A stretch of DNA of 64,000 bases from Opitutales bacterium (GTDB taxonomy: Bacteria; Verrucomicrobiota; Verrucomicrobiia; Opitutales; PNEW01): NCBI GenBank assembly GCA_963692525.1, contig OY829953.1, positions 3,908,720 through 3,972,719 of the forward strand, written 5' to 3'. Of this stretch, positions 3,386 to 64,000 are shown piece by piece; the first letter of the stretch is position 1; every line of letters begins with the position of its first letter. The position numbers were made by a program, and so were the translations under genes. Under the pieces are notes generated by a model. It searched no databases. It was not told where the DNA came from and saw nothing but the letters and a program-made list of their open reading frames with translations.

Positions 3386-3403
3386 TATGGGGTATCAAAA
3401 TAG

Positions 3404-3478
3404 CTTCGTCTTCGTCCTCTTTTTCCACAGCTTGCTATAACACGGACGAAGAGACTGACGTGGACGTAGACGAAGATT
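3404..3478. mobile_element. Shortest family-A element (75 bp, termini only)
   Basis: CTTCGTCTTCGTCC at the left end and GGACGTAGACGAAGATT at the right end are inverted copies. The right 37 nt match the right ends of the 14449-14802 and 26405-26820 elements. It sits 19 nt after the stop of the upstream gene. Confidence 0.55.
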
Positions 3479-3551
3479 AAAAATATAAACTTATTTGGAT
3501 CTTAATTCTTTATTTTATAAATTCGCGCTCTACTATTCGGTTTCAATTCGC

Positions 3552-11694: not shown

Positions 11695-11714
11695 TGTGTT
11701 AAGTGTAGTTTATA

Positions 11715-11970
11715 ATTCTTCGTCACCGTCTTCGTCTGCCTTTTCGTCTTTTATTTTTTAGCTGGTTTTAAGTAAAATATTCTTACAATCCAAGGTGGAG
11801 CGGGCTGCGATTCGGCTGAGCTCATCGAAGTCCTGTCCGACATAGCCTTGGCGACGGCTGATCCCTAGCACGCTTCTTCAATTACGACTTTCTCAAACGC
11901 GCTAGGGACAGCGCGTTCCACCTTTATATATTAAAGAATACTTACGATGAGGCAGACGAAGACGAAGATT
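11715..11970. mobile_element. Family-A element, 256 bp, filled form
   Basis: AATTCTTCGTC...CTTCGTC on the left and GACGAAGACGAAGATT on the right. The interior is GGTGGAGCGGGCTG + 54-nt core module + CCCTAGCACGC...GCGCTAGGG hairpin + CAGCGCGTTCCACC. It lies between convergent genes. Confidence 0.6.
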
Positions 11971-11993
11971 CTCATCCAACTTAACAACTGCCG

Positions 11994-12689
11994 TCACCGC
12001 TTTAACTCGGCGGAAATAAAGGTGGGAACGCAGTCGGGAGGCGGTACTTTTTGTGGCACCGGGTCCTCGACATCTGGAGCATGTCCGTGGCTGAAACCGG
12101 GAAAGTATGGAAATGAATAGCGATAGCGATAGCGGGCACGCCTTTCTGCGGCAAGAAGTCGGGCTTCTATTTCGGCCAAACGAGCTTCTTCTTCGGTGCG
12201 GGCAATCTCTTCATCGCGCTCAAGGAATGCCGCGTCTAATTGATCAGAGATATCATTATCGGGAAAAATGCGGTGGAAATTCCTCCAGTAGTGGATACGA
12301 CTTTCGGCTGAAGCGGTCTTGAATTTCAGACTGTTCAGCTTTTCTTTTTTCAGTTCGAGCCCCCTGATGATTCGCTGTTGATTACGCTCTTTGGCGAGTA
12401 AGACTGCGAGTTCGCGCCGTTTTTTCTCTCGGGCATGTTTCACTGCCGCCGCGCTTTCGTTGATGAGCTTAATTTCTGTCACTACACCATCGATAAATAT
12501 TACTTCACCTCGATCGAAAAAATAGGTCTGTTTTTCATTAACAGAAATAGCGCCGTTAGGGCTGCCGAGGACAGCCTGAACACGATTAATTGAATCCCCC
12601 TCTTTCACCACGGCAGAAAATCCGGTTGAGAAAGAAAATAAAACCACAAGGCTGAGAGGACCGCATATTCGCTTGGAAAGTGTCATCAT
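11994..12689 (-). CDS. Hypothetical secreted coiled-coil protein
   Basis: ATG 12689 gives MMTLSKRICGPLSLVVLFSF, a signal peptide; the ORF-track extension to 12803 is unlikely. It has a charged Arg/Glu-rich helical middle and a Pro-rich tail. Confidence 0.5.
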   Translation of the reverse strand: MMTLSKRICGPLSLVVLFSFSTGFSAVVKEGDSINRVQAVLGSPNGAISVNEKQTYFFDRGEVIFIDGVVTEIKLINESAAAVKHAREKKRRELAVLLAKERNQQRIIRGLELKKEKLNSLKFKTASAESRIHYWRNFHRIFPDNDISDQLDAAFLERDEEIARTEEEARLAEIEARLLAAERRARYRYRYSFPYFPGFSHGHAPDVEDPVPQKVPPPDCVPTFISAELKR

Positions 12690-12886
12690 TACTGTTGGAG
12701 AAAATATCGCGCTTGTTTGTTCCAATTTAATTACAAATAAACGAATTTCAAGTGGAAAAAGTATGCAAAAAAGTGTCTCATCAACGCGGTGATGATTGAT
12801 CAATTTATTCGTTCTTGCACAATGCTTGAATCCTCCTCGTATTGAATCATCACTTACCCATACGCTTATAATAAAAATTAATTAAA

Positions 12887-13798
12887 ATGTCATTGCGAAC
12901 ACTCTTCGAAAATAAATATTACGAATCGTTAAAATATTTTCGCTACTTCTATGACGATCTCAATGAATACGGTAATCCTGAACAAGCGGATGAAGCGTTC
13001 TATTTTATTTACGGTTTTGATGGATCACCCGGTCAAATCCGTTTCGCAATTCCCAGCCTTTATCAAAAGTTCCAGCACCGATTTTATATCCGTTCTCTCT
13101 CTCTTCCCGAGTTTTCGGCCAGCACTCCAATCTGGGAAAAATATTCACCGGAAAATCAAAATAAAAGAGAATCGAAAATAAATGAGGATCTTTGCGATCT
13201 TGCGAAAAAGTTTGAGAAGGTTTCAATCGTGGCATCAAGCACCGGGTTCTATGATTTTCTTCCCGTCTATCCCCAGCTATCAAAAGAGATCCAGAAATCA
13301 TTGCAGCTCTTCTGGGTCGCTTCGGCACCTGATTACGCAGAAAACAGTGCTTGGGAAAAACTATTTTTCCCTCTCAATGGTTTTGAGAAAAACGAATTTC
13401 GGTGGTTCGCTCTCCCAAACAGTAATCTTTTAACCTTCATTAATCCCGAAGCGAGTTTAACTTATAATTGGAAGTTTGGTGCTCAAAACAGGATATTATT
13501 CAAGCATGATCTTGAATCCCGTTTTAAAGTTTTTGGTTTTTCATGGACGTATTTATCCTCCGATTGCATGAACTGGCTCCTTAATCACTGCACTGAAAAT
13601 ATCACTGCGCCGATTGATATAAAGGCATACGTTTTATCAGCCACTAAAGATGGTTACTGGCAGGGTCAGTCTATACCTGAAATGAAACAAGTTATAAATA
13701 AATACATTACTCCTCAATCTATGATTTGGAAAGACAACTCTCACCTCTGGGTGAATACCCCGGAAAACATCAGTGAACTTCTATCCCTTGCTACTTAA
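12887..13798 (+). CDS. Hypothetical protein (possibly alpha/beta-hydrolase-like)
   Basis: A 303-aa AT-rich ORF. IVASSTG resembles a nucleophile elbow, but no family was recognised. Confidence 0.45.
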   Translation: MSLRTLFENKYYESLKYFRYFYDDLNEYGNPEQADEAFYFIYGFDGSPGQIRFAIPSLYQKFQHRFYIRSLSLPEFSASTPIWEKYSPENQNKRESKINEDLCDLAKKFEKVSIVASSTGFYDFLPVYPQLSKEIQKSLQLFWVASAPDYAENSAWEKLFFPLNGFEKNEFRWFALPNSNLLTFINPEASLTYNWKFGAQNRILFKHDLESRFKVFGFSWTYLSSDCMNWLLNHCTENITAPIDIKAYVLSATKDGYWQGQSIPEMKQVINKYITPQSMIWKDNSHLWVNTPENISELLSLAT

Positions 13799-13975
13799 TT
13801 GAGAGCAATTAGATTTTATTTTTTATTTCGTAATCCTTATTTTACGAATAAAAATACAAGTAAAAGATGCTTGTTAAAGATCCCTCATCCTGACAACATT
13901 GCATCACACTCAGTCTCTAAAAATATTTTCTGGTGATAAATTTAATGGTCTTCCCCTTACTATTATAGATTCCTT

Positions 13976-14353
13976 ATGAAAAAAGTTTTTTTAGTTGAAG
14001 ATAATAAAGACAATGCTGATTTGGTTCTCGATATGCTCAATGGCATATACGAGATAAAAATTTTCACCCACGCTATCGAGCTGTTTAATTATTTAGACCA
14101 GCCGGATTCTATCGTCCCCGATGTATTTCTCATGGATATTAATTTACCGGGGATGACCGGGGATGAGATATTAGAGAACATTCGTATTTATTCTAAATAT
14201 GACAAGGTCCCCGTCATTGCTGTTACCGCGCAGAAATTGGGAAATGATGAAGAACACTATATTAGTGTCGGTTTCGCCGGCTATATCGCCAAGCCCATTA
14301 CGGATAGCGATATTCTCATTCAATCAATTGAAGCTGCAGCCAATGTCAGCTAA
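13976..14353 (+). CDS. Stand-alone response-regulator receiver (CheY-like)
   Basis: LVEDN, FLMDINLPGMTG, VIAVTA and YIAKP receiver motifs are present. There is no output domain and no kinase nearby. Confidence 0.85.
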   Translation: MKKVFLVEDNKDNADLVLDMLNGIYEIKIFTHAIELFNYLDQPDSIVPDVFLMDINLPGMTGDEILENIRIYSKYDKVPVIAVTAQKLGNDEEHYISVGFAGYIAKPITDSDILIQSIEAAANVS

Positions 14354-14448
14354 TAAAAGCGGCGATACTCCCTCACTGACATTGAGCGAGGTTTTGCGTT
14401 AAGCAAACCACCCTTCCATTGGGAAGTGGATGGCTTACCCGATAACAG

Positions 14449-14802
14449 CTCTTCGTCTGCCTCTTAGTCTTCGTCCCAGACGCCCTAATACTTCATGATT
14501 ATTGTAGCTTAAGATGGAGCGGGCTGCGATTCGGCTGAGCTCATCGAAGTCCTGTCCGACATAGCCTTGGCGACGGCTGATGCATAGCACGCTCCTTCAA
14601 CTACAACTAACTTAAACGCGTTAGGGATCAGCCATCCTGGAGGGCCACGCTCCTGCCTGTCCGACATAGCCTTGGCATCGGCTGATCGTGGCCGTTAATA
14701 ACATTTCAAAGCGGACGCAATGGAATGCGTCCCTCCATTCCTTATAAAATAATAGGATCTCTATAACAGACGAAGAGCCTGACGTGGACAAAGACGAAGA
14801 TT
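14449..14802. mobile_element. Family-A element, 354 bp long form
   Basis: CTCTTCGTCTGC on the left and GACAAAGACGAAGATT on the right. It is nearly colinear with 26405-26820, including the GGAGGG-GGCCACG...CGTGGCC-GGACGCAatggaaTGCGTCC-CTCC module. Confidence 0.6.
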
Positions 14803-14824
14803 AGTAGAGCTGCCGCCTCACCGC

Positions 14825-15595
14825 TTAAACCGCGGTCCAACCTCCGTCTACCATGAGCGTATGACCTGTAACCAGATCGGAAGCGGAACTCGCGAGATAG
14901 ATAACGGCACCTAGAATATCCTCAGGCCGGCCGATGCGTTGTATAGGTTGACGCTCAAAATATTTTTCCTTGAAGTCCTCATTTTCAAATAAGGATTTTG
15001 TCAGTGGTGTTAATAAATAGGTGGGACCAATTGCGTTTACATTGATTCCATATTCTGCCCACTCCGCTGCCAGGGTACGGGTTAAATTGATAACTCCCGC
15101 CTTGCTTGCTGTATACGATGCCCGTTCATCAGATCCGATTACACCATTTATGGAGGAGATATTGATAATTTTCCCGGATCGCTTTTTTATCATTTCACGG
15201 GCGACAGACTGACTCGTAAAAAAGACCCCTTTTAAATTCACGTCCATCACGCGGTCCCACTCTTCCTCCGAAGTTTCGATCGCTTTTTTCCTGATGATGA
15301 CACCGGCATTGTTGACGAGAATATCAATCCTGCCAAAACTCTCTACGGCTCTTTCCACCATTTGCTCTACACTCTTTATTTTCCGCACGTCCAGTTCCAC
15401 GGTGATCGCCTCTCTCCCTCCTTTCCGAACTGCTTCAGCTGTCTCAAAGGCTGCTTCCTCCTTACCCGGGAGTTCGGTGACGACAACAGTTGCACCGGCT
15501 TGAGAAATTCCCAGGGCTATGGATCGCCCGATCCCGGAACCGCTTCCAGTGATTATCGCCACTTTCCCCGTTAAATCAAAATTTACTCCCTCCAT
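14825..15595 (-). CDS. Short-chain dehydrogenase/reductase (FabG-like)
   Basis: Contains TGSGSGIGRS, NNAG and YTASKAG motifs. Confidence 0.85.
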   Translation of the reverse strand: MEGVNFDLTGKVAIITGSGSGIGRSIALGISQAGATVVVTELPGKEEAAFETAEAVRKGGREAITVELDVRKIKSVEQMVERAVESFGRIDILVNNAGVIIRKKAIETSEEEWDRVMDVNLKGVFFTSQSVAREMIKKRSGKIINISSINGVIGSDERASYTASKAGVINLTRTLAAEWAEYGINVNAIGPTYLLTPLTKSLFENEDFKEKYFERQPIQRIGRPEDILGAVIYLASSASDLVTGHTLMVDGGWTAV

Positions 15596-22423: not shown

Positions 22424-22541
22424 GGGCAAAGGGGCAAAAAGATGTCATCGATATAACAGGTGTTTGATCAATTATTTCAGGTGGGGTTGCATTAAAATTA
22501 TTCCAATTGTAGCACGAAGCTCTATTTTCCATCTCTAAACA

Positions 22542-22573
22542 TTTTGACTTTTTGACCTTTTGACTTTTTGACT
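22542..22573 (+). repeat. (TTTTGACY)4 octamer array
   Basis: ttttgact ttttgacc ttttgact ttttgact, ending 8 nt before ATG 22582. It is identical to the array at 34291-34322. Confidence 0.9.
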
Positions 22574-22581
22574 TAACAACA

Positions 22582-26404: not shown

Positions 26405-26820
26405 CTCTTCGTCTTCGCTTGCCACGTCGTAGACTTCTGCGAAGACGGGTATGCCTTCATCGTCTTGTAGGTTACACCTTGATACTTCATAAATATTGTA
26501 GCTTAAGGTGGAGCGGGCTGCGATTCGGCTGAGCTCATCGAAGTCCTGTCCGACATAGCCTTGGCGACAGCTGATCTCAAGCACGCTTCTTCAATTACGA
26601 CATAATTAAACGCGCTAGGGACAGCGCGTTCCACCTTAATATTGCCATAGAAATATGGAGGGCAACGCTCCTGCTTGTCGGCCATAGCCATGGCGTCGGC
26701 TGATCGTGGCCGTTGACAACATTTCAAAGCGGACGCAATGGAATGCGTCCCTCCATTCCTTATAAAATAATAGGATCTCTATAACAGACGAAGAGACTGA
26801 CGGGGACGAAGACGAAGATT
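26405..26820. mobile_element. Family-A element, 416 bp, longest copy
   Basis: CTCTTCGTCTTCGC on the left and GACGAAGACGAAGATT on the right, with all modules present (see findings). ORF-track entries 26285..26584 and 26503..26727 lie inside it and are not credible. Confidence 0.65.
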
Positions 26821-34108: not shown

Positions 34109-34266
34109 GATGGAACGCGCTGTCCCTAGCGCGTTAGTTATAAGTATTAATAATAGAAGCGCGCTGAGGACCAACATTCGCCAAGGCTATGGCAGGCAGG
34201 ACTTCGATGAGCTCCCTTCGGCATGAGCTCAGGGCCGAATGCAGCCGAATCGCAGCCCGCTCCACC
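34109..34266. repeat. Family-A core in inverted orientation, long-insert variant, no terminal repeats
   Basis: GATGGAACGCGCTGTCCCTAGCGCG ... CGCAGCCCGCTCCACC, carrying the extra TTCGGC/GCCGAA hairpin variant also seen at 63920-63965. Confidence 0.7.
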
Positions 34267-34290
34267 TAAAACGCGTTCGCGTCTTCAACG

Positions 34291-34322
34291 TTTTGACTTT
34301 TTGACCTTTTGACTTTTTGACT
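34291..34322 (+). repeat. (TTTTGACY)4 octamer array
   Basis: The same 32-mer as 22542-22573, located 76 nt upstream of ATG 34399. Confidence 0.9.
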
Positions 34323-34398
34323 TTTATCATATTACCCTCGGTTTGAAAAATACCGGGATATATATTTTATTAATAAATATGATGAAGGAGATTAAAGA

Positions 34399-35283: not shown

Positions 35284-35448
35284 ATCTTAATCGTCGAGAT
35301 ACCGAGATGTAATTAACAGGTAATTGAAAAAAATAAAGTTGATGATTCAGGATTCGGGAAGACAGTGATCAGTCGCTTTCGTTGTCTCTGTGGTGAAATT
35401 AAAGTTGCTCGCATTTTGCACTTCTTTGTCATTGCGAAGGTGGAACGC

Positions 35449-35560
35449 GGTGTCCCTACCGCGTTTAATAGTTACATTGAGTTAAGAAGCGCACTGAGAT
35501 CAGCCGTCGCCAAGGCTATGTCGGACAGGACTTCGATGAGCTCAGCCGAATCGCGGCGTG
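35449..35560. repeat. Family-A partial element (inverted orientation, G/C hairpin allele)
   Basis: GGTGGAACGCGGTGTCCCTACCGCG ... ATCAGCCGTCGCCAAGGCTATGTCGGACAGGACTTCGATGAGCTCAGCCGAATCGC. Confidence 0.7.
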
Positions 35561-35632
35561 TTTTATTTTTGACAAAGATTGGGAGGAAGATGTCATTCAA
35601 ACCAAATTCTTATTTTCTTCACCGCATACACG

Positions 35633-37835: not shown

Positions 37836-37995
37836 GGTGGAGCGGGCTGCCTGACCGCCATAGCCTTGGCGTCGGCTGGTTCCCTAGCACGCTTCTTCAT
37901 TTACGACTTCATACAACGCGCCGAAGATCAGCCGTCGCCAAGGCTATATCGGAGAGGACTTCGATGAGCTCAGCCGAATCGCAACACGTTCCACC
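37836..37995. repeat. Family-A core, fully palindromic form with a core module on both arms
   Basis: GGTGGAGCGGGCTGC + CCATAGCCTTGGCGTCGGCTGG + central hairpin + ATCAGCCGTCGCCAAGGCTATATCGG...GAGCTCAGCCGAATCGC + GTTCCACC. Confidence 0.7.
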
Positions 37996-41673: not shown

Positions 41674-41838
41674 GTCAAAAGGTCAAAAAGGGAGGAGCGC
41701 TGATGCGCGTATTAAATTATAAGATAATTAACTTTATACAAGCATTGCTACTTTTTACTGATCACTGATAAATGATTTCTGTCTAGACATCCTGCATCAT
41801 CCAACGTTTTGACCTTTTGACTTTTTGACCTTTTGACT
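41674..41838. repeat. Inverted pair of octamer arrays flanking a 116-bp AT-rich core
   Basis: (GTCAAAAR)2 at 41674-41689 and (TTTTGACY)4 at 41807-41838, lying between convergent genes. Confidence 0.85.
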
Positions 41839-46119: not shown

Positions 46120-46279
46120 GGGATAGCCACTACCGAGCCCCGCAATTGCGAGGCGACATCTTTCAAAGGCACTGCTTAAGTGTAGAAACATCTTCAAGAG
46201 GTACAAAAAACACAAGAAAAAGATTTAGGGAAAGGTATAGTGGCCACGACAACGCGTAGCCCACCTGGTGAATTTTTTT

Positions 46280-46338
46280 CTGGAGGGCCACGCTCCTGCC
46301 TGTCGGCCATAGCCTTGGCGTCGGCTGATCGTGGCCGT
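46280..46338 (+). repeat. Solitary core-in-stem module
   Basis: CTGGAGG-GCCACG-ctcctgcc-TGTCGGCCATAGCCTTGGCGTCGGCTGAT-CGTGGCC-GT, identical in plan to the internal modules at 14638-14696, 26655-26713 and 61319-61378 (inverted). Confidence 0.8.
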
Positions 46339-49598: not shown

Positions 49599-49674
49599 GT
49601 CAAAAGGTCAAAAAGTCAAAAGGTCAAAAAGGAAATGCGATTAAGCTTTTGACTATTTGACCAGTACCTTTGAC
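49599..49674. repeat. Inverted octamer arrays filling the gap between two cistrons
   Basis: (GTCAAAAR)4 at 49599-49630 starts 6 nt from the ATG (49592, minus strand). The degenerate CTTTTGAC TATTTGAC ... CTTTGACC at 49646-49674 abuts the upstream stop at 49675. Confidence 0.85.
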
Positions 49675-50145: not shown

Positions 50146-50296
50146 GTCAAAAGGTCAAAAAGTCAAAAGGTCAAAAGGATATGCGTGAACGCGATTAAGC
50201 GTACCGAGGGCGAAGCCCGACATCCTCAAATGTGGAAATAACTTTCACCCTTAAACTTTTTGACCTTTTGACCTTTTGACCTTTTGACCTTTTGAC
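50146..50296. repeat. Inverted octamer arrays flanking a C unit
   Basis: (GTCAAAAR)4 at 50146-50177 starts 6 nt from ATG 50139 (minus strand). The C unit is at 50201-50232 and (CTTTTGAC)5 at 50256-50296. A GCGAC aagg GTCGC hairpin follows. Confidence 0.9.
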
Positions 50297-50315
50297 GTCG
50301 CGACAAGGGTCGCTA

Positions 50316-53874: not shown

Positions 53875-54075
53875 CACCCCAGCGGGGTGTAACATTCGTA
53901 GCCCGCAGCGTAAGCTGTGGGTTAAAATATGTGCCATATAAATTAAGCCCCAGCGGGGCGACACAATAACCGTCGAAAGCGATGTTGTGTCGCCCCGCTG
54001 GGGCTCTGAATTATAAAATATCACTCCCACCCACAGCTCACGCTGTGGGCTAAACCTATGCCGCCCCTCCGGGGC
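53875..54075. repeat. Mirror-symmetric array of five hairpins
   Basis: CACCCCagcGGGGTG (53875-89). CCCGCAGC-GTAA-GCTGTGGG (53902-21). A 20-bp perfect stem, GCCCCAGCGGGGCGACACAA / TTGTGTCGCCCCGCTGGGGC (53947-54004). CCCACAGC-TCAC-GCTGTGGG (54030-49). GCCCCtccGGGGC (54063-75). Confidence 0.85.
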
Positions 54076-54206
54076 TGATAGAGTACGTTAAGGATAAGTT
54101 TTAACATCTTCCTTTTTACATTAATTCGTAAGTATCTAACAGTGATGAGGGGGAAGCCGATGACCAAGATAACCGTGATTATACTTTGCCTTAATGCCTT
54201 TTATAA

Positions 54207-58536: not shown

Positions 58537-59271
58537 ATGAAAGCACTTCTCGTAAGGGTTGGAATTGATAGCGCTTTTGGTAATTGGAATGCGCCGATAG
58601 ATCCGCAATCGAGGGAATTTGTTTACCTTCCCATTCCAGAAGTTATGCCGAGCCATAAGCATCTGGAGCGTCGTTATACCGAGACCTTGCCAGTATTAAA
58701 ACAGTTTTGTGAAAAATATAAATTGGATTTAGCGCGTGATCTTAATTTTCCAACTTCTCTCTTAAATAAAAAAATGCATTTGGATCCGGATTTCCATGAA
58801 CTGACTTATGGTGATAATGGTGCTAGACGCGGCGTTAATATGTCCCGTATGAAATCTGGTGATGTTCTTGCCTTTTATTCAAGTTTGCGACCAATTAAAG
58901 CGTGTGCGCATACTCTAATATATGCTATAATTGGTCTTTATGTAGTTAAAGAAGTTGTTTCTGTAGGAGAAGTGCAGAAGAAGCTATGGAAACAGAATGC
59001 TCATACCCGTAGAGCAAATCCGCTGGCAGCGGAGATTGTCGTGAGAGCAGAAAAGAATGAATCAGGGCGCTTGGAAAGCTGCATCCCGATTGGGGAGTGG
59101 CGTGATCGAGCTTATCGTGTGCGCGGGGATCTTATTAAAAAGTGGGGAGGAATATCAGTAAATAATGGCTACATACAACGTAGTGCCGTACCACCAGCAC
59201 TTACTCACCCCCAGCGATTTTATGACTGGTTTTTAAAGCAAAACGTCACGCTTATTAAGACGAATAATTAA
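58537..59271 (+). CDS. Hypothetical protein (possible nucleotide-modification-associated fold; unverified)
   Basis: 244 aa. The N terminus, LLVRVGIDSAFGNWNAPIDPQSREFVYLPIPE, reminds me of an R-x-G-x-D-S ... P-I-P-[DE] signature. That is recollection only, with no search run. Confidence 0.5.
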   Translation: MKALLVRVGIDSAFGNWNAPIDPQSREFVYLPIPEVMPSHKHLERRYTETLPVLKQFCEKYKLDLARDLNFPTSLLNKKMHLDPDFHELTYGDNGARRGVNMSRMKSGDVLAFYSSLRPIKACAHTLIYAIIGLYVVKEVVSVGEVQKKLWKQNAHTRRANPLAAEIVVRAEKNESGRLESCIPIGEWRDRAYRVRGDLIKKWGGISVNNGYIQRSAVPPALTHPQRFYDWFLKQNVTLIKTNN

Positions 59272-59279
59272 GTTTATAG

Positions 59280-59535
59280 GTCAAAAAGTCGAAAAGTATA
59301 CGCGTACCGAGGTCGAAGTCCGACATCCTCACATGCGTTTAAGCGGTTATGCGATAAAGAGTGCCGAGGGCGAAGCCCGACATCCTCAAATGGGAATAAG
59401 CGGATACTGCTATGAATTTCCTGCAACACTCTGACCTTCTGGCTTGGAAGATGTCGTTCCGCGAATATGGAACTCGGAACCGGTTCTCTAGCCTTCCTGC
59501 ATAAATCCGCAATCGCATATCGCAAATCGACAATT
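59280..59535. repeat. Mosaic of octamers, two C units, a D unit and AATCCGCAATCG motifs
   Basis: GTCAAAAA GTCGAAAA at 59280-59295, C units at 59304-59335 and 59361-59392, the D unit at 59431-59482, and AATCCGCAATCGCATATCGCAAATCG at 59507-59532. It fills the whole gap between convergent genes. Confidence 0.85.
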
Positions 59536-59539
59536 GTTA

Positions 59540-60271
59540 TCATCCTCTCCCTAAATACAACTGCCCTACGGGTAGAGTGATACACTCATACATATTTACG
59601 TGGGGAGGTAAAGTAACTACGGTGAGCACAACCTTTGCAATATCATCAACAGACATCATGGGTTCCTGGTCTTGGACAGAATCACTCACCACTCGCCGCT
59701 CGATCGCAACATTGCCTGGATGCACACAACTGGCGGCAACCCCAAAATCACGCCCTTCGAGGGCGGTAGCCTTCGTTAATCCCGCAATACCAAATTTGGT
59801 CGCGACATAAGGAGCTGAATTCAGGCGAGGCATCTGGCCCGAAATGCTGCCAATATTGACTATCCTTCCACCTCCCTGCCCTTTCATGATTTTCATCGCT
59901 TCCCGACTACAGAGAAACGTTCCTGTGAGGTTCAAATCGACGACCTGACTCCATTCCTGAAGCGATAATTCATCTATCGATTTACCTACACTTATACCCG
60001 AATTATTAATCAGGATATCCAGACGCCCAAAACTATCCATCGTCTGTTTGAATAGGGCGATGACTGCTTCTTCTTTAGTAATATCAGTCGGAATTACTTT
60101 AACTTCCGAATTATATTCTTTTAGTTCATCTGCGGTCTTTTGCAGATTATCTTCATTACGTGAAGCGAGTACAAGCTGTGCGCCCGCACCGGCTAACGCT
60201 CGAGAAATACCTTTACCAATACCAGTACCGGCTCCCGTAACGATGGCGATTTTACCTTCTAATTCACTCAT
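59540..60271 (-). CDS. Short-chain dehydrogenase/reductase
   Basis: Contains VTGAGTGIGKG, NNSG and YVATKFG motifs. Confidence 0.85.
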   Translation of the reverse strand: MSELEGKIAIVTGAGTGIGKGISRALAGAGAQLVLASRNEDNLQKTADELKEYNSEVKVIPTDITKEEAVIALFKQTMDSFGRLDILINNSGISVGKSIDELSLQEWSQVVDLNLTGTFLCSREAMKIMKGQGGGRIVNIGSISGQMPRLNSAPYVATKFGIAGLTKATALEGRDFGVAASCVHPGNVAIERRVVSDSVQDQEPMMSVDDIAKVVLTVVTLPPHVNMYECITLPVGQLYLGRG

Positions 60272-60500
60272 GGTTTTTTTATTTTTAATTTATATTTGCT
60301 TTTTAAATACGTGTGTTTTGCCAATCTTTACAACAATTCATCATAACTGGAAGCAAAGGCATTAGTGAGCTTTATATTTTAAGACGCTCAATTTACACAA
60401 TAGTAAAATGGAGAAATAACGATGTGTGACTGATAACCATTCACTGGTTAGAGATTCTTCTATTCAATCGAAAATCGAACATCCCGCAATCCGCAATCGT

Positions 60501-60627
60501 CAGTGGCCCTCCAGAAGGGCTGTTCCAGAGCTCGCTTCTTTAATTACGACAAATCTAACGCGGTAGGGACACCGCGTTCCACCTTGATTTTGTATTATAT
60601 AGACGAAGAGGTAGACGTAGACGAAGC
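60501..60627. repeat. Family-A right half (G/C hairpin allele) with right terminus
   Basis: CAGTGGCCCTCCAG ... AACGCGGTAGGGACACCGCGTTCCACC ... AGACGAAGAGGTAGACGTAGACGAAGC. Confidence 0.65.
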
Positions 60628-60641
60628 TTTATATAATAAAA

Positions 60642-61115
60642 CTAATAATTAAGGGGCTGATTTATTTTTATAGGACGCATGAAGGTATAACGAAATTGTC
60701 CATGCAGTGTCGTCTCTTTCATTTTCCAACCTAAATATTTATAAAACCCATTAGCACGAGAATGCGGATCGGCCCCGGTATCCAACCAGATTTCATCATA
60801 GCCCTGTTCCCATAACCAGTGCATGGCCAATTCTAATAAACCGCGACCTATACCTTGACCTTCATAGTCGGGTAAAACAAATAAAGCCCAAACAGATCGT
60901 GTCCGTTTATTGGCAATAGAAAAACCGACCAAAAGGTCATCGGATTCCGCTACCCATCCTTTGCAATCAGACTTAAAGGCCTCTTTCACACTTTCCTGCG
61001 TTATCCCCATATTTCTCAACTCCAGGAGAGACAAGTAGTTCTCTCTCACTTTTACGCGTACCTTAAAAATGGTCGGGATATCCTCGGCTATGGCTTCACG
61101 AAATATCATCTGCAA
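60642..61115 (-). CDS. GNAT family N-acetyltransferase
   Basis: 157 aa. LPDYEGQGIGRGLLE is the acetyl-CoA-binding Q/RxxGxG motif. Confidence 0.8.
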   Translation of the reverse strand: MQMIFREAIAEDIPTIFKVRVKVRENYLSLLELRNMGITQESVKEAFKSDCKGWVAESDDLLVGFSIANKRTRSVWALFVLPDYEGQGIGRGLLELAMHWLWEQGYDEIWLDTGADPHSRANGFYKYLGWKMKETTLHGQFRYTFMRPIKINQPLNY

Positions 61116-61197
61116 AATAAATAATCGAGAAAGATCCTATAAACACCCTATGTATAGATCAAGAAAAAGCGGATAATCCCTCCTACTTCCACCTTGA

Positions 61198-61545
61198 ATA
61201 ATCTTCGTCTGCGTCTTTAATAAGGCTCCTTAGAAATGGAGGGACGCACGGAGCATGTCGGCCATAGTACCGCAACAGCGAAGACGACGGCTGATTGCGT
61301 CCGTTTGACAAGATGGTTACGGCCACGATCAACCGACGCCAAGGCTATGGCCGACAGGCAGGAGCGTGGCCCTCCAGGCGACGGCTGACCCCAAGCGCGC
61401 TTCTTCATTTACAACTCACTTAAACGCGCTAGGGACCAACCTTCGCCAAGGCTATGGCTGGCAGGACTTCGATGAGCTCAGCCGAATCGCAGCGCGTTCC
61501 ACCATGATATTATAGTTAATGATTGGACAGACGAAGACGAAGATT
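61198..61545. mobile_element. Family-A element, 348 bp, inverted module order, with an extra nested core
   Basis: AATAATCTTCGTCTGCGTC on the left and GACGAAGACGAAGATT on the right. The GGACGCA/TGCGTCC hairpin carries a 47-nt core-like insert in its loop. Confidence 0.6.
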
Positions 61546-61581
61546 TCAATTACTCAATGCCTTATTCTGGCATATTTCCAT

Positions 61582-62688
61582 TCAAAAATCATTATCACTC
61601 TCGAGCATTGAAATAGATAAGGGAGTACCCTTCCTTTCTCCATGCATCATAGCGACTCGCTGACATAGGGGAGTCAGTTGGCTTGCGATATATTTTGCTC
61701 CCTCATTATTGGGATGAAATCCATCTGGAAAAAAGAACCCGTATGAATTCGGTGAATCGTAATCCATGTCCTTTAAATTGAGAACCATTGCATCTTTATA
61801 AAATTCATCACGAATTTTATTATTATAGCTAAGAATACCACTTAACCGCGGCGCACGATTGGATACAGGAGGTAAGATAAGAATAATTTCGGTATTGTGT
61901 TCACTTGCCGCGGTGACAAAAGTTTTAAAATTAGCAATCGCATCCTCCATCGGAACTCTCACATTCTTATTAATCTGAGAATGTTGGCCGGCAGGTTGTT
62001 TTATGTACGTTTGATAAAGTGATTCGAATGCGAGGTAAGTGTGAGTTTTTTGAATCCATTTAAGAGGAGCGGCATGAGTAAACTGCAAGAGGTTTAGATA
62101 CTGGTTGTCAGTTAAGAGGGGTGTTTCCCAGATATCATTCCATCCAAAGTAAATAATGAGGAGATCCGGGTTGACCTTGGAAAACCACCTATCGAATACA
62201 ACTTTTCCTTGACTGCTGCTGTAGCCGGGCTGCGAAAAGTTGTAGACTTTAAATGCACCTGACTGTTCACCTAATCTCTCTTCCAATATCGACTGAAACG
62301 TAAGGCGATAATCTAAAATGCCCCAACCAAAAGCACACGAGTCTCCAAGGATCATAACCTTTGTCTCATTATCACTATGCAGATTTGGATCATAAACATT
62401 ACCGCGAAAGCCTAAAGCGTTAATACCCGTATAGCCCTGAATCGGTTCTCCTGATGGATTTTGCTGAACGTGAAATAATAAGCCAGCATCAGGATGTGAG
62501 AGCTCATTTTCTCTCAATGTATATTTTATCGTGCTGGGAATGTTACTTGCCGCATAAGCGGGTAAACCAAGTTTGCGAAAATTGATATAGAGTGGTCGGG
62601 CAAAAAAACAGGTTAACTCAAGACCTCCAAAAAAGAGCCCAACAACGATGGCCGCAAAAAACATCCTCTTCTTTAAAGAAAAGTTCAT
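61582..62688 (-). CDS. SGNH/GDSL hydrolase, membrane-anchored
   Basis: ATG 62688 is preceded by AGGAGG. It has an N-terminal TM, then ILGDSCAFGWG (block I), GWND and DGFHPN (block V). The ORF-track start at 62772 is probably an extension. Confidence 0.8.
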   Translation of the reverse strand: MNFSLKKRMFFAAIVVGLFFGGLELTCFFARPLYINFRKLGLPAYAASNIPSTIKYTLRENELSHPDAGLLFHVQQNPSGEPIQGYTGINALGFRGNVYDPNLHSDNETKVMILGDSCAFGWGILDYRLTFQSILEERLGEQSGAFKVYNFSQPGYSSSQGKVVFDRWFSKVNPDLLIIYFGWNDIWETPLLTDNQYLNLLQFTHAAPLKWIQKTHTYLAFESLYQTYIKQPAGQHSQINKNVRVPMEDAIANFKTFVTAASEHNTEIILILPPVSNRAPRLSGILSYNNKIRDEFYKDAMVLNLKDMDYDSPNSYGFFFPDGFHPNNEGAKYIASQLTPLCQRVAMMHGERKGTPLSISMLESDNDF

Positions 62689-63068
62689 TTGCCTCCTCTT
62701 TTCCTGATCACCTGAAGTACCTTTATCACGATTGGGAACACCAGGTTTATAATCTCTGTATTTTAGTGCCATTCTTCTTTATATTACACTGCTACACTTA
62801 CTGTAAATTCGGATAAAATTCATTTGCAGTGGTTAGTCTCTCAAAACGAACTAATTTTCTGTATAATTCAATGTCATTTTTTTTCTAAAGTGCAATATTA
62901 GAAAATTGACTCCCGCCTGACACTTTGAACCTGTCTCTTAACTCTTAACACTGAATAATTTAATTTTTTTCACTTTTTCCGGGAAGAAAATGGTGCGTCA
63001 CGGCTCTAAGTTTATAATTCAGTGTTTTCGTACATTGTTAACTTATAAACAAACACATACTTATAAAT

Positions 63069-63440
63069 ATGAAATATATTAGCAGTCTTTTGACATGTTG
63101 TATTCTCTTACCTCTTCTCACCGCCTTGGGTTCTGGCGATTATTCGCCACCGCCACGCACCACAGATCATAGTTCCATCTCGTCGGCATCGGCCACTAAA
63201 AACAATATCGATGGGACCCGTTTCAATCTTGGTAAAAATATATATTTGGGGAAGATTGATTTACCGGCAGATCCTATTAATGAGGCAAATTACGAAACGC
63301 AAAATAAAATTCTCACCAAATTGAAAATAACTTTACCTAAAAGCGTAGTAAAAAAACTCGACGCTGCAGCTTTCTCGGGCCGTTTAACTAAAAAGCAATT
63401 TGATAGTTTAAGGTATTTTTTAATTAAACGTTTTAAGTAG
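63069..63440 (+). CDS. Hypothetical secreted protein
   Basis: Signal peptide (LLTCCILLPLLTALGSG); 123 aa and Lys-rich. No family was recognised. Confidence 0.45.
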   Translation: MKYISSLLTCCILLPLLTALGSGDYSPPPRTTDHSSISSASATKNNIDGTRFNLGKNIYLGKIDLPADPINEANYETQNKILTKLKITLPKSVVKKLDAAAFSGRLTKKQFDSLRYFLIKRFK

Positions 63441-63484
63441 AACTAAGCTGAATGGTGTTAGGATAGAACGTATGGATTTGTCGT

Positions 63485-63692
63485 ATTAGTCTTCGTCTCT
63501 GGCTAATATAGATTATCTTGCAATCCATGGTGGAGCGGGCTGTCCCTAGCACGCTTCTTCAATTACAACTTAATCAAACGCGCTAGGGACAGCGCGTTCC
63601 ACCTATCTATTCTATTAATAACTGGATGGACGAGGAGGCTGACCCGTCTTCGCAGTAGTCTACGACGTGGCAAGCGCGGACAGAGACGAAGA
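63485..63692. mobile_element. Family-A element, empty form (no core module)
   Basis: ATTAGTCTTCGTC on the left and GACAGAGACGAAGATG on the right. The interior GGTGGAGCGGGCTG-TCCCTAGCACGC ... GCGCTAGGGACAGCGCGTTCCACC is an uninterrupted 26-bp-arm palindrome. Confidence 0.6.
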
Positions 63693-63727
63693 TGATTGTT
63701 ATACATAGCAGTGAATCAAGCGCGGGC

Positions 63728-63861: not shown

Positions 63862-64000
63862 ATTAGTCTTCGTCTCTGGCAAATATAGATTATCTTGCAA
63901 TCCATGGTGGAGCGGGCTGCGATTCGGCTGCATTCGGCCCTGAGCTCATGCCGAAGGGAGCTCATCGAAGTCCTGTCCGACATAGCCTTGGCGACGGCTG
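63862..64000. repeat. Family-A element, filled form, truncated by window end
   Basis: The same 85-nt left part as 63456-63542, but GGGCTG is followed by the long core module (CGATTCGGCTGCATTCGGCCCTGAGCTCATGCCGAAGGGAGCTCATCGAAGTCCTGTCCGACATAGCCTTGGCGACGGCTG). Confidence 0.7.

Follow-up and report, generated by a model that had tools for sequence, protein, structure and literature searches.

A 30-nt hairpin module in the loops of REP hairpins of an Opitutales chromosome: a candidate single-strand DNA mini-element

Introduction

Why does one 29-nt sequence recur at the tips of different stems in the intergenic DNA of a bacterial chromosome? The question is raised by positions 46280-46338 of a 64,000-nt stretch of contig OY829953.1 (hereafter the window), which belongs to the gene-dense chromosome of an Opitutales bacterium (Verrucomicrobiota), has a GC content of about 45% and carries ordinary metabolic genes. 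A preliminary description of this DNA had drawn attention to the 29-mer and to the stems around it. In the present work, the 29-mer is described as the body of a discrete 30-nt unit, the module, and is compared with about 150 copies drawn from genomes, metagenomes and phage contigs with GC contents of 33-70%. The surrounding stems are hairpins of repetitive extragenic palindromic (REP) elements, belong to a system of REPs and REP-associated tyrosine transposases (RAYTs), and are arranged as two kinds of REPIN, a pair of inverted REP units. The module that occupies their loops is, with a probability of roughly 0.6, a non-autonomous REP-like mini-element of single-stranded DNA, possibly moved by transposases of the RAYT type.

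REP-like repeats are usually viewed as lineage-specific passengers of one domesticated transposase. The module is a counter-example, being near-identical in distant phyla and in phage contigs, present within other REPs and within itself, and provided with a defined target. It offers a simple and testable substrate for asking how gene-less hairpin repeats move, a question that stood open for a decade in the case of the CGTC-tagged REPs. The names REP1 and REP2 for the two host families, and type A and type B for the two REPINs, are those given in this analysis. L-numbers (L003, L051 and so on) designate loci fetched around module matches, amounting in total to 1.7 Mb of module-centred DNA.

Copies of the module in the window

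With no more than 3 mismatches allowed, a degenerate form of the 29-mer matched the window 10 times and 100 shuffles not once; the remaining copies were picked up with the 12-mer ATAGCCTTGGCG. A covariance model of the module (R1), built from 30 variants and run unfiltered over the window, returned 14 matches, all with E values of at most 2e-4 where 0 were expected. These fall exactly at all of the 14 positions listed in the preliminary description, including the divergent copy at 61253 and the one at the window end at 63977. The count made by eye is thereby borne out, as is the occurrence of both orientations, with nine copies on the plus strand and five on the minus strand. All 14 copies in the 64 kb are intergenic except for one doubtful overlap with an open reading frame (ORF).

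The query copy, CCTGTCGGCCATAGCCTTGGCGTCGGCTGA, was read at 46299-46328 on the plus strand and scores 49.1 bits (E 3e-11; model hit at 46298). It lies in a REP1 loop, as do the plus-strand modules at 14656-14685 (hit at 14655) and, in a stem with one mismatch, at 26674-26703 (hit at 26673), and the minus-strand module at 61329-61358 (hit at 61327). A long-loop variant (41 nt) fills the GGACGCA/TGCGTCC hairpin of REP1 at 61254-61294 (plus strand, 32.3 bits, hit at 61253). REP2 loops hold plus-strand modules at 11832-11861 (hit at 11831), 14551-14580 (hit at 14550), 26545-26574 (hit at 26544) and 63972-64000 (hit at 63977; cut by the window end), and minus-strand modules at 61436-61465 (hit at 61434) and, in a divergent form of 24.5 bits, at 34171-34200 (hit at 34169). 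The host REP2 of the minus-strand module at 35500-35529 (hit at 35498) has a degenerate head. One REPIN is filled on both sides, its left half carrying a plus-strand module at 37850-37879 (hit at 37849) and its right half a minus-strand module at 37928-37957 (hit at 37926). A half module, GGCGACGGCTGA, found by sequence search at 61377-61388 on the plus strand, abuts the end of a type B REPIN.

Anatomy of the module

The module has the form CYTGTC-NGCC-ATAGC-YTYR-GCGAM-GGCNGA and bears a short tag (CYTG/TGTC) at its 5' end, ahead of an imperfect hairpin. This hairpin comprises a 6-bp lower helix, a small region of internal mismatch (ATA opposite GAC), an upper helix of 2-3 bp and a tiny or variable loop, canonically of 4 nt and of 7 to 40 nt in variants. 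In the lower helix, UCNGCC/GGCNGA, the third pair is GU in 29, AU in 27 and CG in 14 of the genome loci. In the upper helix, GCY/RGC, the third pair is CG in 50 and UA in 50 of the metagenome matches listed. Paired cells make up 92.6-97.9% of the alignments, two of which were fitted to the model, compared with 86-91% after shuffling and 11-59% when the partners were slid. The 5' tag C[CT]TG/TGTC is kept in 116 of 148 subfamily copies, and its TC is able to pair with the 3' GA. The preliminary description had taken the core for a conserved single-stranded motif presented on different stems. This view is not supported in that form, since the core is itself a hairpin with covarying pairs and the stems belong to two REP families.

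The module has the attributes of a generic REP: an imperfect palindrome of 20-40 nt, present in many copies, extragenic and found in both orientations. When single-stranded DNA was folded, the enclosing stem was recovered in most of the 13 copies examined. Thermodynamic folding as a proof of the stems was dropped, the z-scores being too weak for that purpose.

The host hairpins and their RAYT genes

Three host stems or arm pairs had been distinguished in the preliminary description. The stems are real, but two of them, GGCCACG/CGTGGCC and GGACGCA/TGCGTCC, are homologous halves of one REPIN of about 100 nt and therefore do not represent independent hosts. The third arm pair, GGTGGAGCGGGCTG/CAGCGCGTTCCACC, does recur, but forms the outer arms of a REPIN in which the stem enclosing the core is AGCGGGCT/AGCACGCT.

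Each type A REPIN is a pair of REP2 units, inverted with respect to each other and shaped as GGTGG-A[AG]CG[CG]GCT-G^TCCCT-AGC[AG]CG[CT]T, the core being placed in the loop directly before TCCCT (here and below, ^ marks the insertion point). The one at 11794-11922 (plus strand) has its left loop filled; repeat searches and reading of the sequence identified others at 14513-14650, 26507-26635, 34109-34266, 35439-35580, 37836-37995, 61377-61503 and from 63906 onward. Type B REPINs measure about 100 nt and consist of two inverted REP1 units. At 14638-14737 (plus strand) the left unit is filled and the right one empty; a second lies at 26656-26755 and a third, with both halves filled, at 61237-61376. 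The REP1 hairpin that hosts the query copy was read at 46281-46336 on the plus strand, its stem being predicted by DNA folding. It is composed of a TGGAG head (46281-46285), the arms GGCCACG (46286-46292) and CGTGGCC (46330-46336) and a loop remnant, CTCCTG (46293-46298), which precedes the module. On the minus strand at 46242-46266, a decayed and empty inverted REP1 (GGCCACG-ACAACG-CGTAGCC-CACCT), recognized by eye from the REP1 consensus, would be its head-to-head partner. Counted by eye, about 14 of the 23-24 REP hairpins in the window are filled.

Homologous Y1 transposase genes are present at three loci, one from another Opitutales metagenome-assembled genome (MAG) that shares the repeat elements of the window and is distinct from the MAG of L051 (L061), and two from other Opitutia (L069 and L078). 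RAYT genes were assigned with NCBIfam NF047646 'REP-associated tyrosine transposase' (cut-off 80 bits), against which the three score 87.4, 71.1 and 98.9 bits, respectively, and with Pfam Y1_Tnp, which they match as well. Each of these genes is flanked by TGGAGG-headed hairpins, which places the host stems in a REP/RAYT system. The flanks of the L061 gene, TGGAGGGCCACG-CTCCGT-CGTGGCC and TGGAGGGACGCA-CTCCGT-TGCGTCC, are the first two window stems without the core, and the REPs beside RAYT genes are mostly empty.

Four RAYT genes occur in the 1.7 Mb of module-centred DNA, and the module is found in an adjacent REP at two of them (L069 and L223) and at neither the L061 nor the L078 gene. In both positive cases it lies inside the RAYT's own REP and on one side only, and the gene is not flanked by the module itself. 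At L223 the site is GA^AG of a GTAG-tagged hairpin. REPs with GTAG-like heads have been reported to abound in Opitutus terrae, among them a family in which GTAG is changed to GTGG (PMC3733652).

Filled and empty sites

Several independent comparisons of filled and empty hairpins indicate that the module behaves as an inserted unit. A type A REPIN at 63529-63603 (plus strand), part of a 377-nt tandem duplication whose flanks are 93% identical, has both REP2 loops empty, GCTG being followed immediately by TCCCT. Its paralogue 377 nt away contains extra sequence at this junction, with the module at the end of it, and in related genomes, as in the window REPIN at 37836, a C and the module alone occupy the junction that distinguishes the 63529 and 63906 copies. 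At L069 the REP upstream of the RAYT gene, GGCTCGCAGGGACGCGAGCC, is empty, and the downstream REP differs from it only by an addition of 29-30 nt at this position. Of the GGACGCA hairpins, those at 14700, at 26720 and in L051 are empty, and a module fills those at 61244 and in L025. A further case is provided by a Dependentiae locus (L003), where a partial tRNA-Arg copy carries two modules at places where the adjoining intact gene is uninterrupted. A target duplication was absent at all the filled and empty junctions compared. In addition, each of the 14 window modules shares its strand with the 5' head of the REP that hosts it.

The boundaries and the target could be delimited in the commonest subfamily, CCGCC/GGCGG, represented by 104 unique copies in which the element measures exactly 30 nt. 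Of these copies, 32% are followed on the 3' side by AGC (A 0.62, G 0.61, C 0.51) and 30% are preceded on the 5' side by CGA or CGT. The preferred target across the comparison sample is CG[AT]^AGC; Opitutales copies mostly have TCC or TGC as their 3' flank, and other modules occur at GCGA^AG in small hairpin loops. Nesting of the module in itself is also seen: at CC[AG]T^AGC, 12 copies lie within an outer copy, the lower helix of which varies but is still paired (for example CCAGCC/GGCTGG, CCCGGC/GCCGGG, CCCTTC/GAAGGG or TCCTCC/GGAGGA).

A perfect adjacent helix of at least 6 bp was found at 17% of 155 unique copies, as opposed to 3.6% with swapped flanks, an enrichment of about five-fold; under a looser test of flanking stems the figures were 40% and 17%. 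The stem context that had been reported for most copies is thus enriched over the control, but it is not universal beyond this genome. The suggestion of a hairpin-targeting mobile unit is upheld in spirit by the filled and empty hairpins, fixed ends, absence of target duplication, target preference and nesting. The idea that the core is the active end of such a unit has to be abandoned, the whole 30-nt unit being the element rather than the end of something larger.

The composite elements also vary between close relatives. Positions 58800-63715 of the window are 93-96% identical to a contig of the Opitutales MAG at L051. A haloarchaeal origin, which the acidic-looking GACGAAGA repeats and the GC content of about 45% had suggested at first, was rejected on this identity. 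At the orthologous site, the relative lacks the REPIN cluster of 61237-61503. At a neighbouring intergenic site (window 60412-60613, L051 6029-6406), the two genomes, about 95% identical, have the same REPIN types, but in inverted arrangement and with different parts deleted, and such intergenic sites appear to be rearrangement hotspots. The absence of the one cluster and the rearrangement of the neighbouring site therefore indicate a turnover of the composite elements at the level of the species.

Distribution beyond the window

A genome scan with CATAGCCTTGGCGNCGGCTGA retrieved 78 loci, mostly from Opitutales, Lacunisphaera or Opitutaceae. The other loci came from several Peribacteria MAGs, two Dependentiae MAGs, one Andersenbacteria MAG, a Deltaproteobacteria MAG (three contigs), Desulfatiglans and a gammaproteobacterial MAG. 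A 'Devosia' contig seems to have been mis-binned, since its flank is the same as those of Lacunisphaera. Composite units formed by a TGGAGGG-headed stem and the core recur in Lacunisphaera and Peribacteria. A scan of viral contigs yielded 39 loci, about 20 of which carry the full signature, and a metagenome scan yielded at least 120 stretches with GC contents from 33 to 70%. Cultured plasmids and phages gave BLAST matches at chance level only, and a literature search for the exact module sequence found nothing relevant. The existence of near-identical copies in several phyla and in phage contigs gives the module the look of a tiny non-autonomous mobile element, and its sequence constitutes a sharp marker for scanning metagenomes.

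A possible mechanism

Fixed ends, no duplication, a short target, a strand locked to that of the host REP and a preference for loops are traits in keeping with an enzyme that recognizes a hairpin together with a few neighbouring bases and cuts and joins DNA in single-stranded form. In IS608 and in RAYT biochemistry, the same hairpin-guided single-strand mode is encountered. Y1 HUH transposases cut and join single-stranded DNA through the recognition of a hairpin and a few adjacent bases (PMC11893778). In the mechanism proposed here, an enzyme acting in trans, most likely a Y1 HUH transposase of the RAYT/IS200 type, would cut and join the module in single-stranded form, and the module would land wherever a short target is single-stranded, this target being CG[A/T]^AGC for most lineages and ^TCCC for Opitutales. 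Hairpin loops, including the module's own internal loop, would be favoured because the target is exposed there as a single strand. The adjacency of module and RAYT at two of four genes is suggestive in this respect. That the change was one of insertion and not of deletion, that the intermediate is single-stranded and which enzyme is at work are what we infer from these comparisons. Once found, the partner enzyme would represent a sequence- and structure-specific tool for single-stranded DNA.

A more far-reaching version of this proposal is put forward only tentatively. The module might be the smallest site-specific mobile DNA in any description to date, a gene-less hairpin of 30 nt entering CG[A/T]^AGC loops without duplication by means of borrowed Y1 or other single-strand enzymes and spreading across phyla (Verrucomicrobiota, candidate phyla radiation (CPR) lineages, Dependentiae and Desulfobacterota), partly on phages.

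Several observations weigh against a mini-element moved by a RAYT-type enzyme. No enzyme is tied to the module itself, and the adjacency to RAYT genes could be a by-product of the location of modules in REPs, which in turn flank RAYTs. Outside Opitutales, an obvious flanking stem is missing in most copies, as the strict helix test above reflects. Folding energies are unexceptional (z-scores +1.1 to -2.0), and the window copies have no clear bias towards one strand, though GC skew is weak there. REPs are not usually near-identical across phyla, and descriptions of REPIN-RAYT systems present them as lineage-specific and mostly inherited vertically. The position of several phage modules directly 5' of a ribosome-binding site makes a role as RNA possible. 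Finally, insertion and deletion are not separable by static comparisons.

Alternative explanations

The nearest likeness in form is to the CGTC-tagged REPs, which include dRS3/NTS of Neisseria and RPE-4 and RPE-6 of Rickettsia, and to the Ssn-related motifs (SRMs), targets of the SsnA GIY-YIG nucleases (PMC3733652, PMC11893778). The module could be the recognition hairpin of an Ssn-family GIY-YIG nuclease and a divergent kin of these repeats (NTS/SRM), with the RAYTs as bystanders; we consider this unlikely, although Ssn nucleases would be the main alternative partner to RAYTs. The CGTC-tagged REPs measure 28-30 nt, bear a 5' (C/T)GTC tag that orients them, resemble one another across phyla and had 'no dedicated transposase' (PMC3733652). 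A link to SsnA, a nuclease that binds the hairpin in the form of single-stranded DNA and cuts a few bases upstream, was reported in 2025 (PMC11893778). Co-occurrence tied SRMs to ssnA, a gene found in 81% of the genomes rich in SRMs. The module is alike in its size, in its tag (TGTC in most copies, within the accepted CGTC, TGTC or CCTC), in a stem of about 9 bp with a loop of 4-5 nt, in its presence in distant phyla with no transposase gene attached and in its occasional location inside other palindromes; one copy (L139) even lies within a classical TGTC-ATTGC...GCAAT-CCA hairpin. However, a CGTC-tagged REP has an 8-9-bp stem opening with A/T pairs and a CCA tail, whereas the stem of the module opens with C/G (CGCC, AGCC or GGCC), contains two fixed mismatches and has a tail of GA plus A or T. 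For lack of a stem opening with A/T, none of 170 modules matches in register the SRM pattern HGTCWYN(0-2)YYVSBRHN(0-5)WNVSBRGN(0-2)RNCYNB. Ssn-like genes (cd10448) number only two in the 1.7 Mb, each 2.8-3.2 kb from a module, and the window contains neither such a gene nor an SRM match. One of the two (L127, 3270-3760) is flanked on both sides by long-loop classical CGTC-AT...AT-C hairpins instead of the module; this locus constitutes an independent metagenome example of the published NTS-ssnA-NTS arrangement. Membership of the SRM/Ssn family was rejected on the pattern fit and on the lack of an ssn gene adjoining any copy: the module is closest in form to the CGTC-tagged REPs but fails their defining features.

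Slightly less likely still is that the module acts as RNA, as a structured hairpin for processing, stability or protein binding that is kept by selection and merely carried by REPs. Both helices covary, the loop nucleotides are conserved, the G-U pair that is commonest at one position of the written strand becomes C-A on the other strand, and several phage copies immediately precede, on the 5' side, a ribosome-binding site with its start codon. On the other hand, a strand bias relative to transcription, which the preliminary description had proposed to look for, did not appear (co-directional gaps gave 13 against 10, and 21 gaps were convergent as opposed to 11 divergent), the module is followed by unrelated genes, and Rfam gave no module match at the gathering threshold in the window, nor at E values up to 10 in 11700-15000, which holds three copies. 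Self-nesting, insertion in a tRNA fragment and the filled and empty sites are behaviours of a DNA element, and one covarying pair closes a 2-nt loop, a geometry disfavoured in RNA hairpins that would suit a DNA palindrome better. An origin of the core as a native part of the REPs, with 'empty' hairpins as deletion products and no independent movement, is improbable to a similar or somewhat greater degree. The proportion of filled hairpins in the window and the composite units of Lacunisphaera and Peribacteria are compatible with it, but the hosts of the module include two unrelated REP families, other modules, a tRNA fragment, GAAG tetraloops and intergenic phage DNA, REPs that flank RAYT genes are mostly empty, and no repeats beside the module could drive a precise deletion. 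A double-stranded binding site of a host protein, comparable to the integration host factor (IHF) site between two REPs in the BIME-1/RIP of E. coli, is in our view the least probable explanation by far. The core does lie at the centre of REP palindromes and its upper helix is a near-palindromic 8-mer (GCCTTGGC, GCTTAAGC or GCCATGGC), yet compensatory changes preserve pairing rather than sequence, conservation across phyla with very different nucleoid proteins would be hard to explain, and fixed ends and a target preference indicate an inserted unit.

Relation to known mobile elements

The host stems of the window have the hallmarks of REP/REPIN-RAYT systems, being hairpins of 25-35 nt with a 5' head (TGGAG or GGTGG) that are extragenic, form inverted pairs and flank RAYT genes in relatives. 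The module resembles REPs in its size, in its 5'-tagged imperfect palindrome, in its two orientations and in the lack of target duplication. It differs from REP/RAYT elements in being a second, smaller hairpin within REP loops rather than a RAYT-flanking repeat, and from REPIN-RAYT systems in its cross-phylum near-identity, its own target preference and its self-nesting.

With the elements derived from IS200/IS605 it has in common the absence of the usual terminal inverted repeats and of target duplication, the probable recognition through a hairpin, the position beside a short specific target and the strand specificity. These elements have two different subterminal hairpins and measure at least 100 nt, whereas the module is a single hairpin of 30 nt, and no TnpA or TnpB gene bearing module-type ends was found. 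Its single hairpin, and the lack of a recurring transposase among its neighbours, also set it apart from the IS200/IS605-derived palindrome-associated transposable elements (PATEs). Nor is it a MITE (a miniature transposable element with inverted repeats), because a target duplication is absent; its sole inverted repeat is the 6-bp lower helix. IS1397 and ISKpn1 are autonomous elements of the IS3 family, 1.4 kb long, that insert in REP loops and generate target duplications. The module likewise occupies REP loops, but is 30 nt long, gene-less and free of duplication. The host stems are of an already known kind, and the module matches no described family.

No gene recurs beside the module beyond related loci, either in a Pfam scan of 94 flanking ORFs or in an all-against-all clustering of 4140 ORFs located within 1.5 kb of a module. 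A search for an autonomous version found no unpaired half-sites bracketing genes or cargo.

Nested layers around the module

In type A copies, a second mini-hairpin of 24 nt, CGATTCGGCTGAGCTCATCGAAGT, stands directly 5' of the module (11808-11831, plus strand) and is present in 9 of the 14 module-bearing loops. In the copies at 63906 and 34266 (63920-63971 and 34201-34252) it is split at CTG^AGC by a 28-nt relative, CATTCGGCCCTGAGCTCATGCCGAAGGG, whose 3' flank is AGC, like the target of the main module.

REPIN clusters are themselves enclosed by inverted arms, TCTTCGTC and GACGAAGA, located 30-80 nt away. Examples are found at 11717-11735 and 11955-11962, at 14450-14475 and 14769-14800, and at 61202-61209 and 61530-61537; at 3396-3490 the shell occurs alone. 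The two 8-mers number 15 and 16 occurrences in the window, respectively, nearly all of them close to REPIN clusters. With this outer palindromic shell around the REPINs, hairpins are therefore nested at four levels. The succession of outer inverted-repeat shell, REPIN, REP and module may be a common and overlooked build of intergenic DNA.

Other observations

The Dependentiae locus L003 holds one further hairpin insert in the same partial tRNA-Arg copy (1-400), and a second tRNA-like fragment bears a long-loop module at the same D-arm position. A tRNA intron was rejected for this locus, the carrier being a partial and non-functional tRNA copy. A module also lies less than 100 nt downstream of a tRNA gene in L033, L052, L056, L063, L185 and L196.

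In the Deltaproteobacteria MAG (L029, 3543-3651), three modules are arranged in tandem with a period of 37-38 nt and are followed 180 nt on by an inverted copy. This array resembles the repeat arrays of type III toxin-antitoxin systems, though a toxin-like gene was not identified there. A protein-coding reading of the module (..AKAMADK..) is possibly genuine only at a Saccharibacteria locus (L041) and was rejected elsewhere, where the copies are intergenic.

The viral loci at which the module directly precedes a ribosome-binding site and a start codon are L080, L091, L099 and L106. The genes that follow are unrelated (amidase-like or phosphoesterase-like, for example), and the arrangement may hint at an effect on translation or mRNA stability. 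A known RNA family was rejected for the module, there being no Rfam match, and likeness to a ribozyme, k-turn, 5S or SRP RNA was weighed by eye only and dropped with nothing in its support.

Two further features of the window deserve mention. An Acido-Lenti-1 RNA is recognized by Rfam at 54030-54076 on the plus strand (44.5 bits, gathering threshold 37, E 8e-7), in the gap between two minus-strand genes. Arrays with an 8-nt period, (TTTTGACY)n or its complement, are intergenic and in some cases located just upstream of start codons; they are found on the plus strand at about 22540-22575, 34290-34325, 41805-41837 and 50257-50300, and on the minus strand at 49600-49635, 50146-50180 and 59279-59295.

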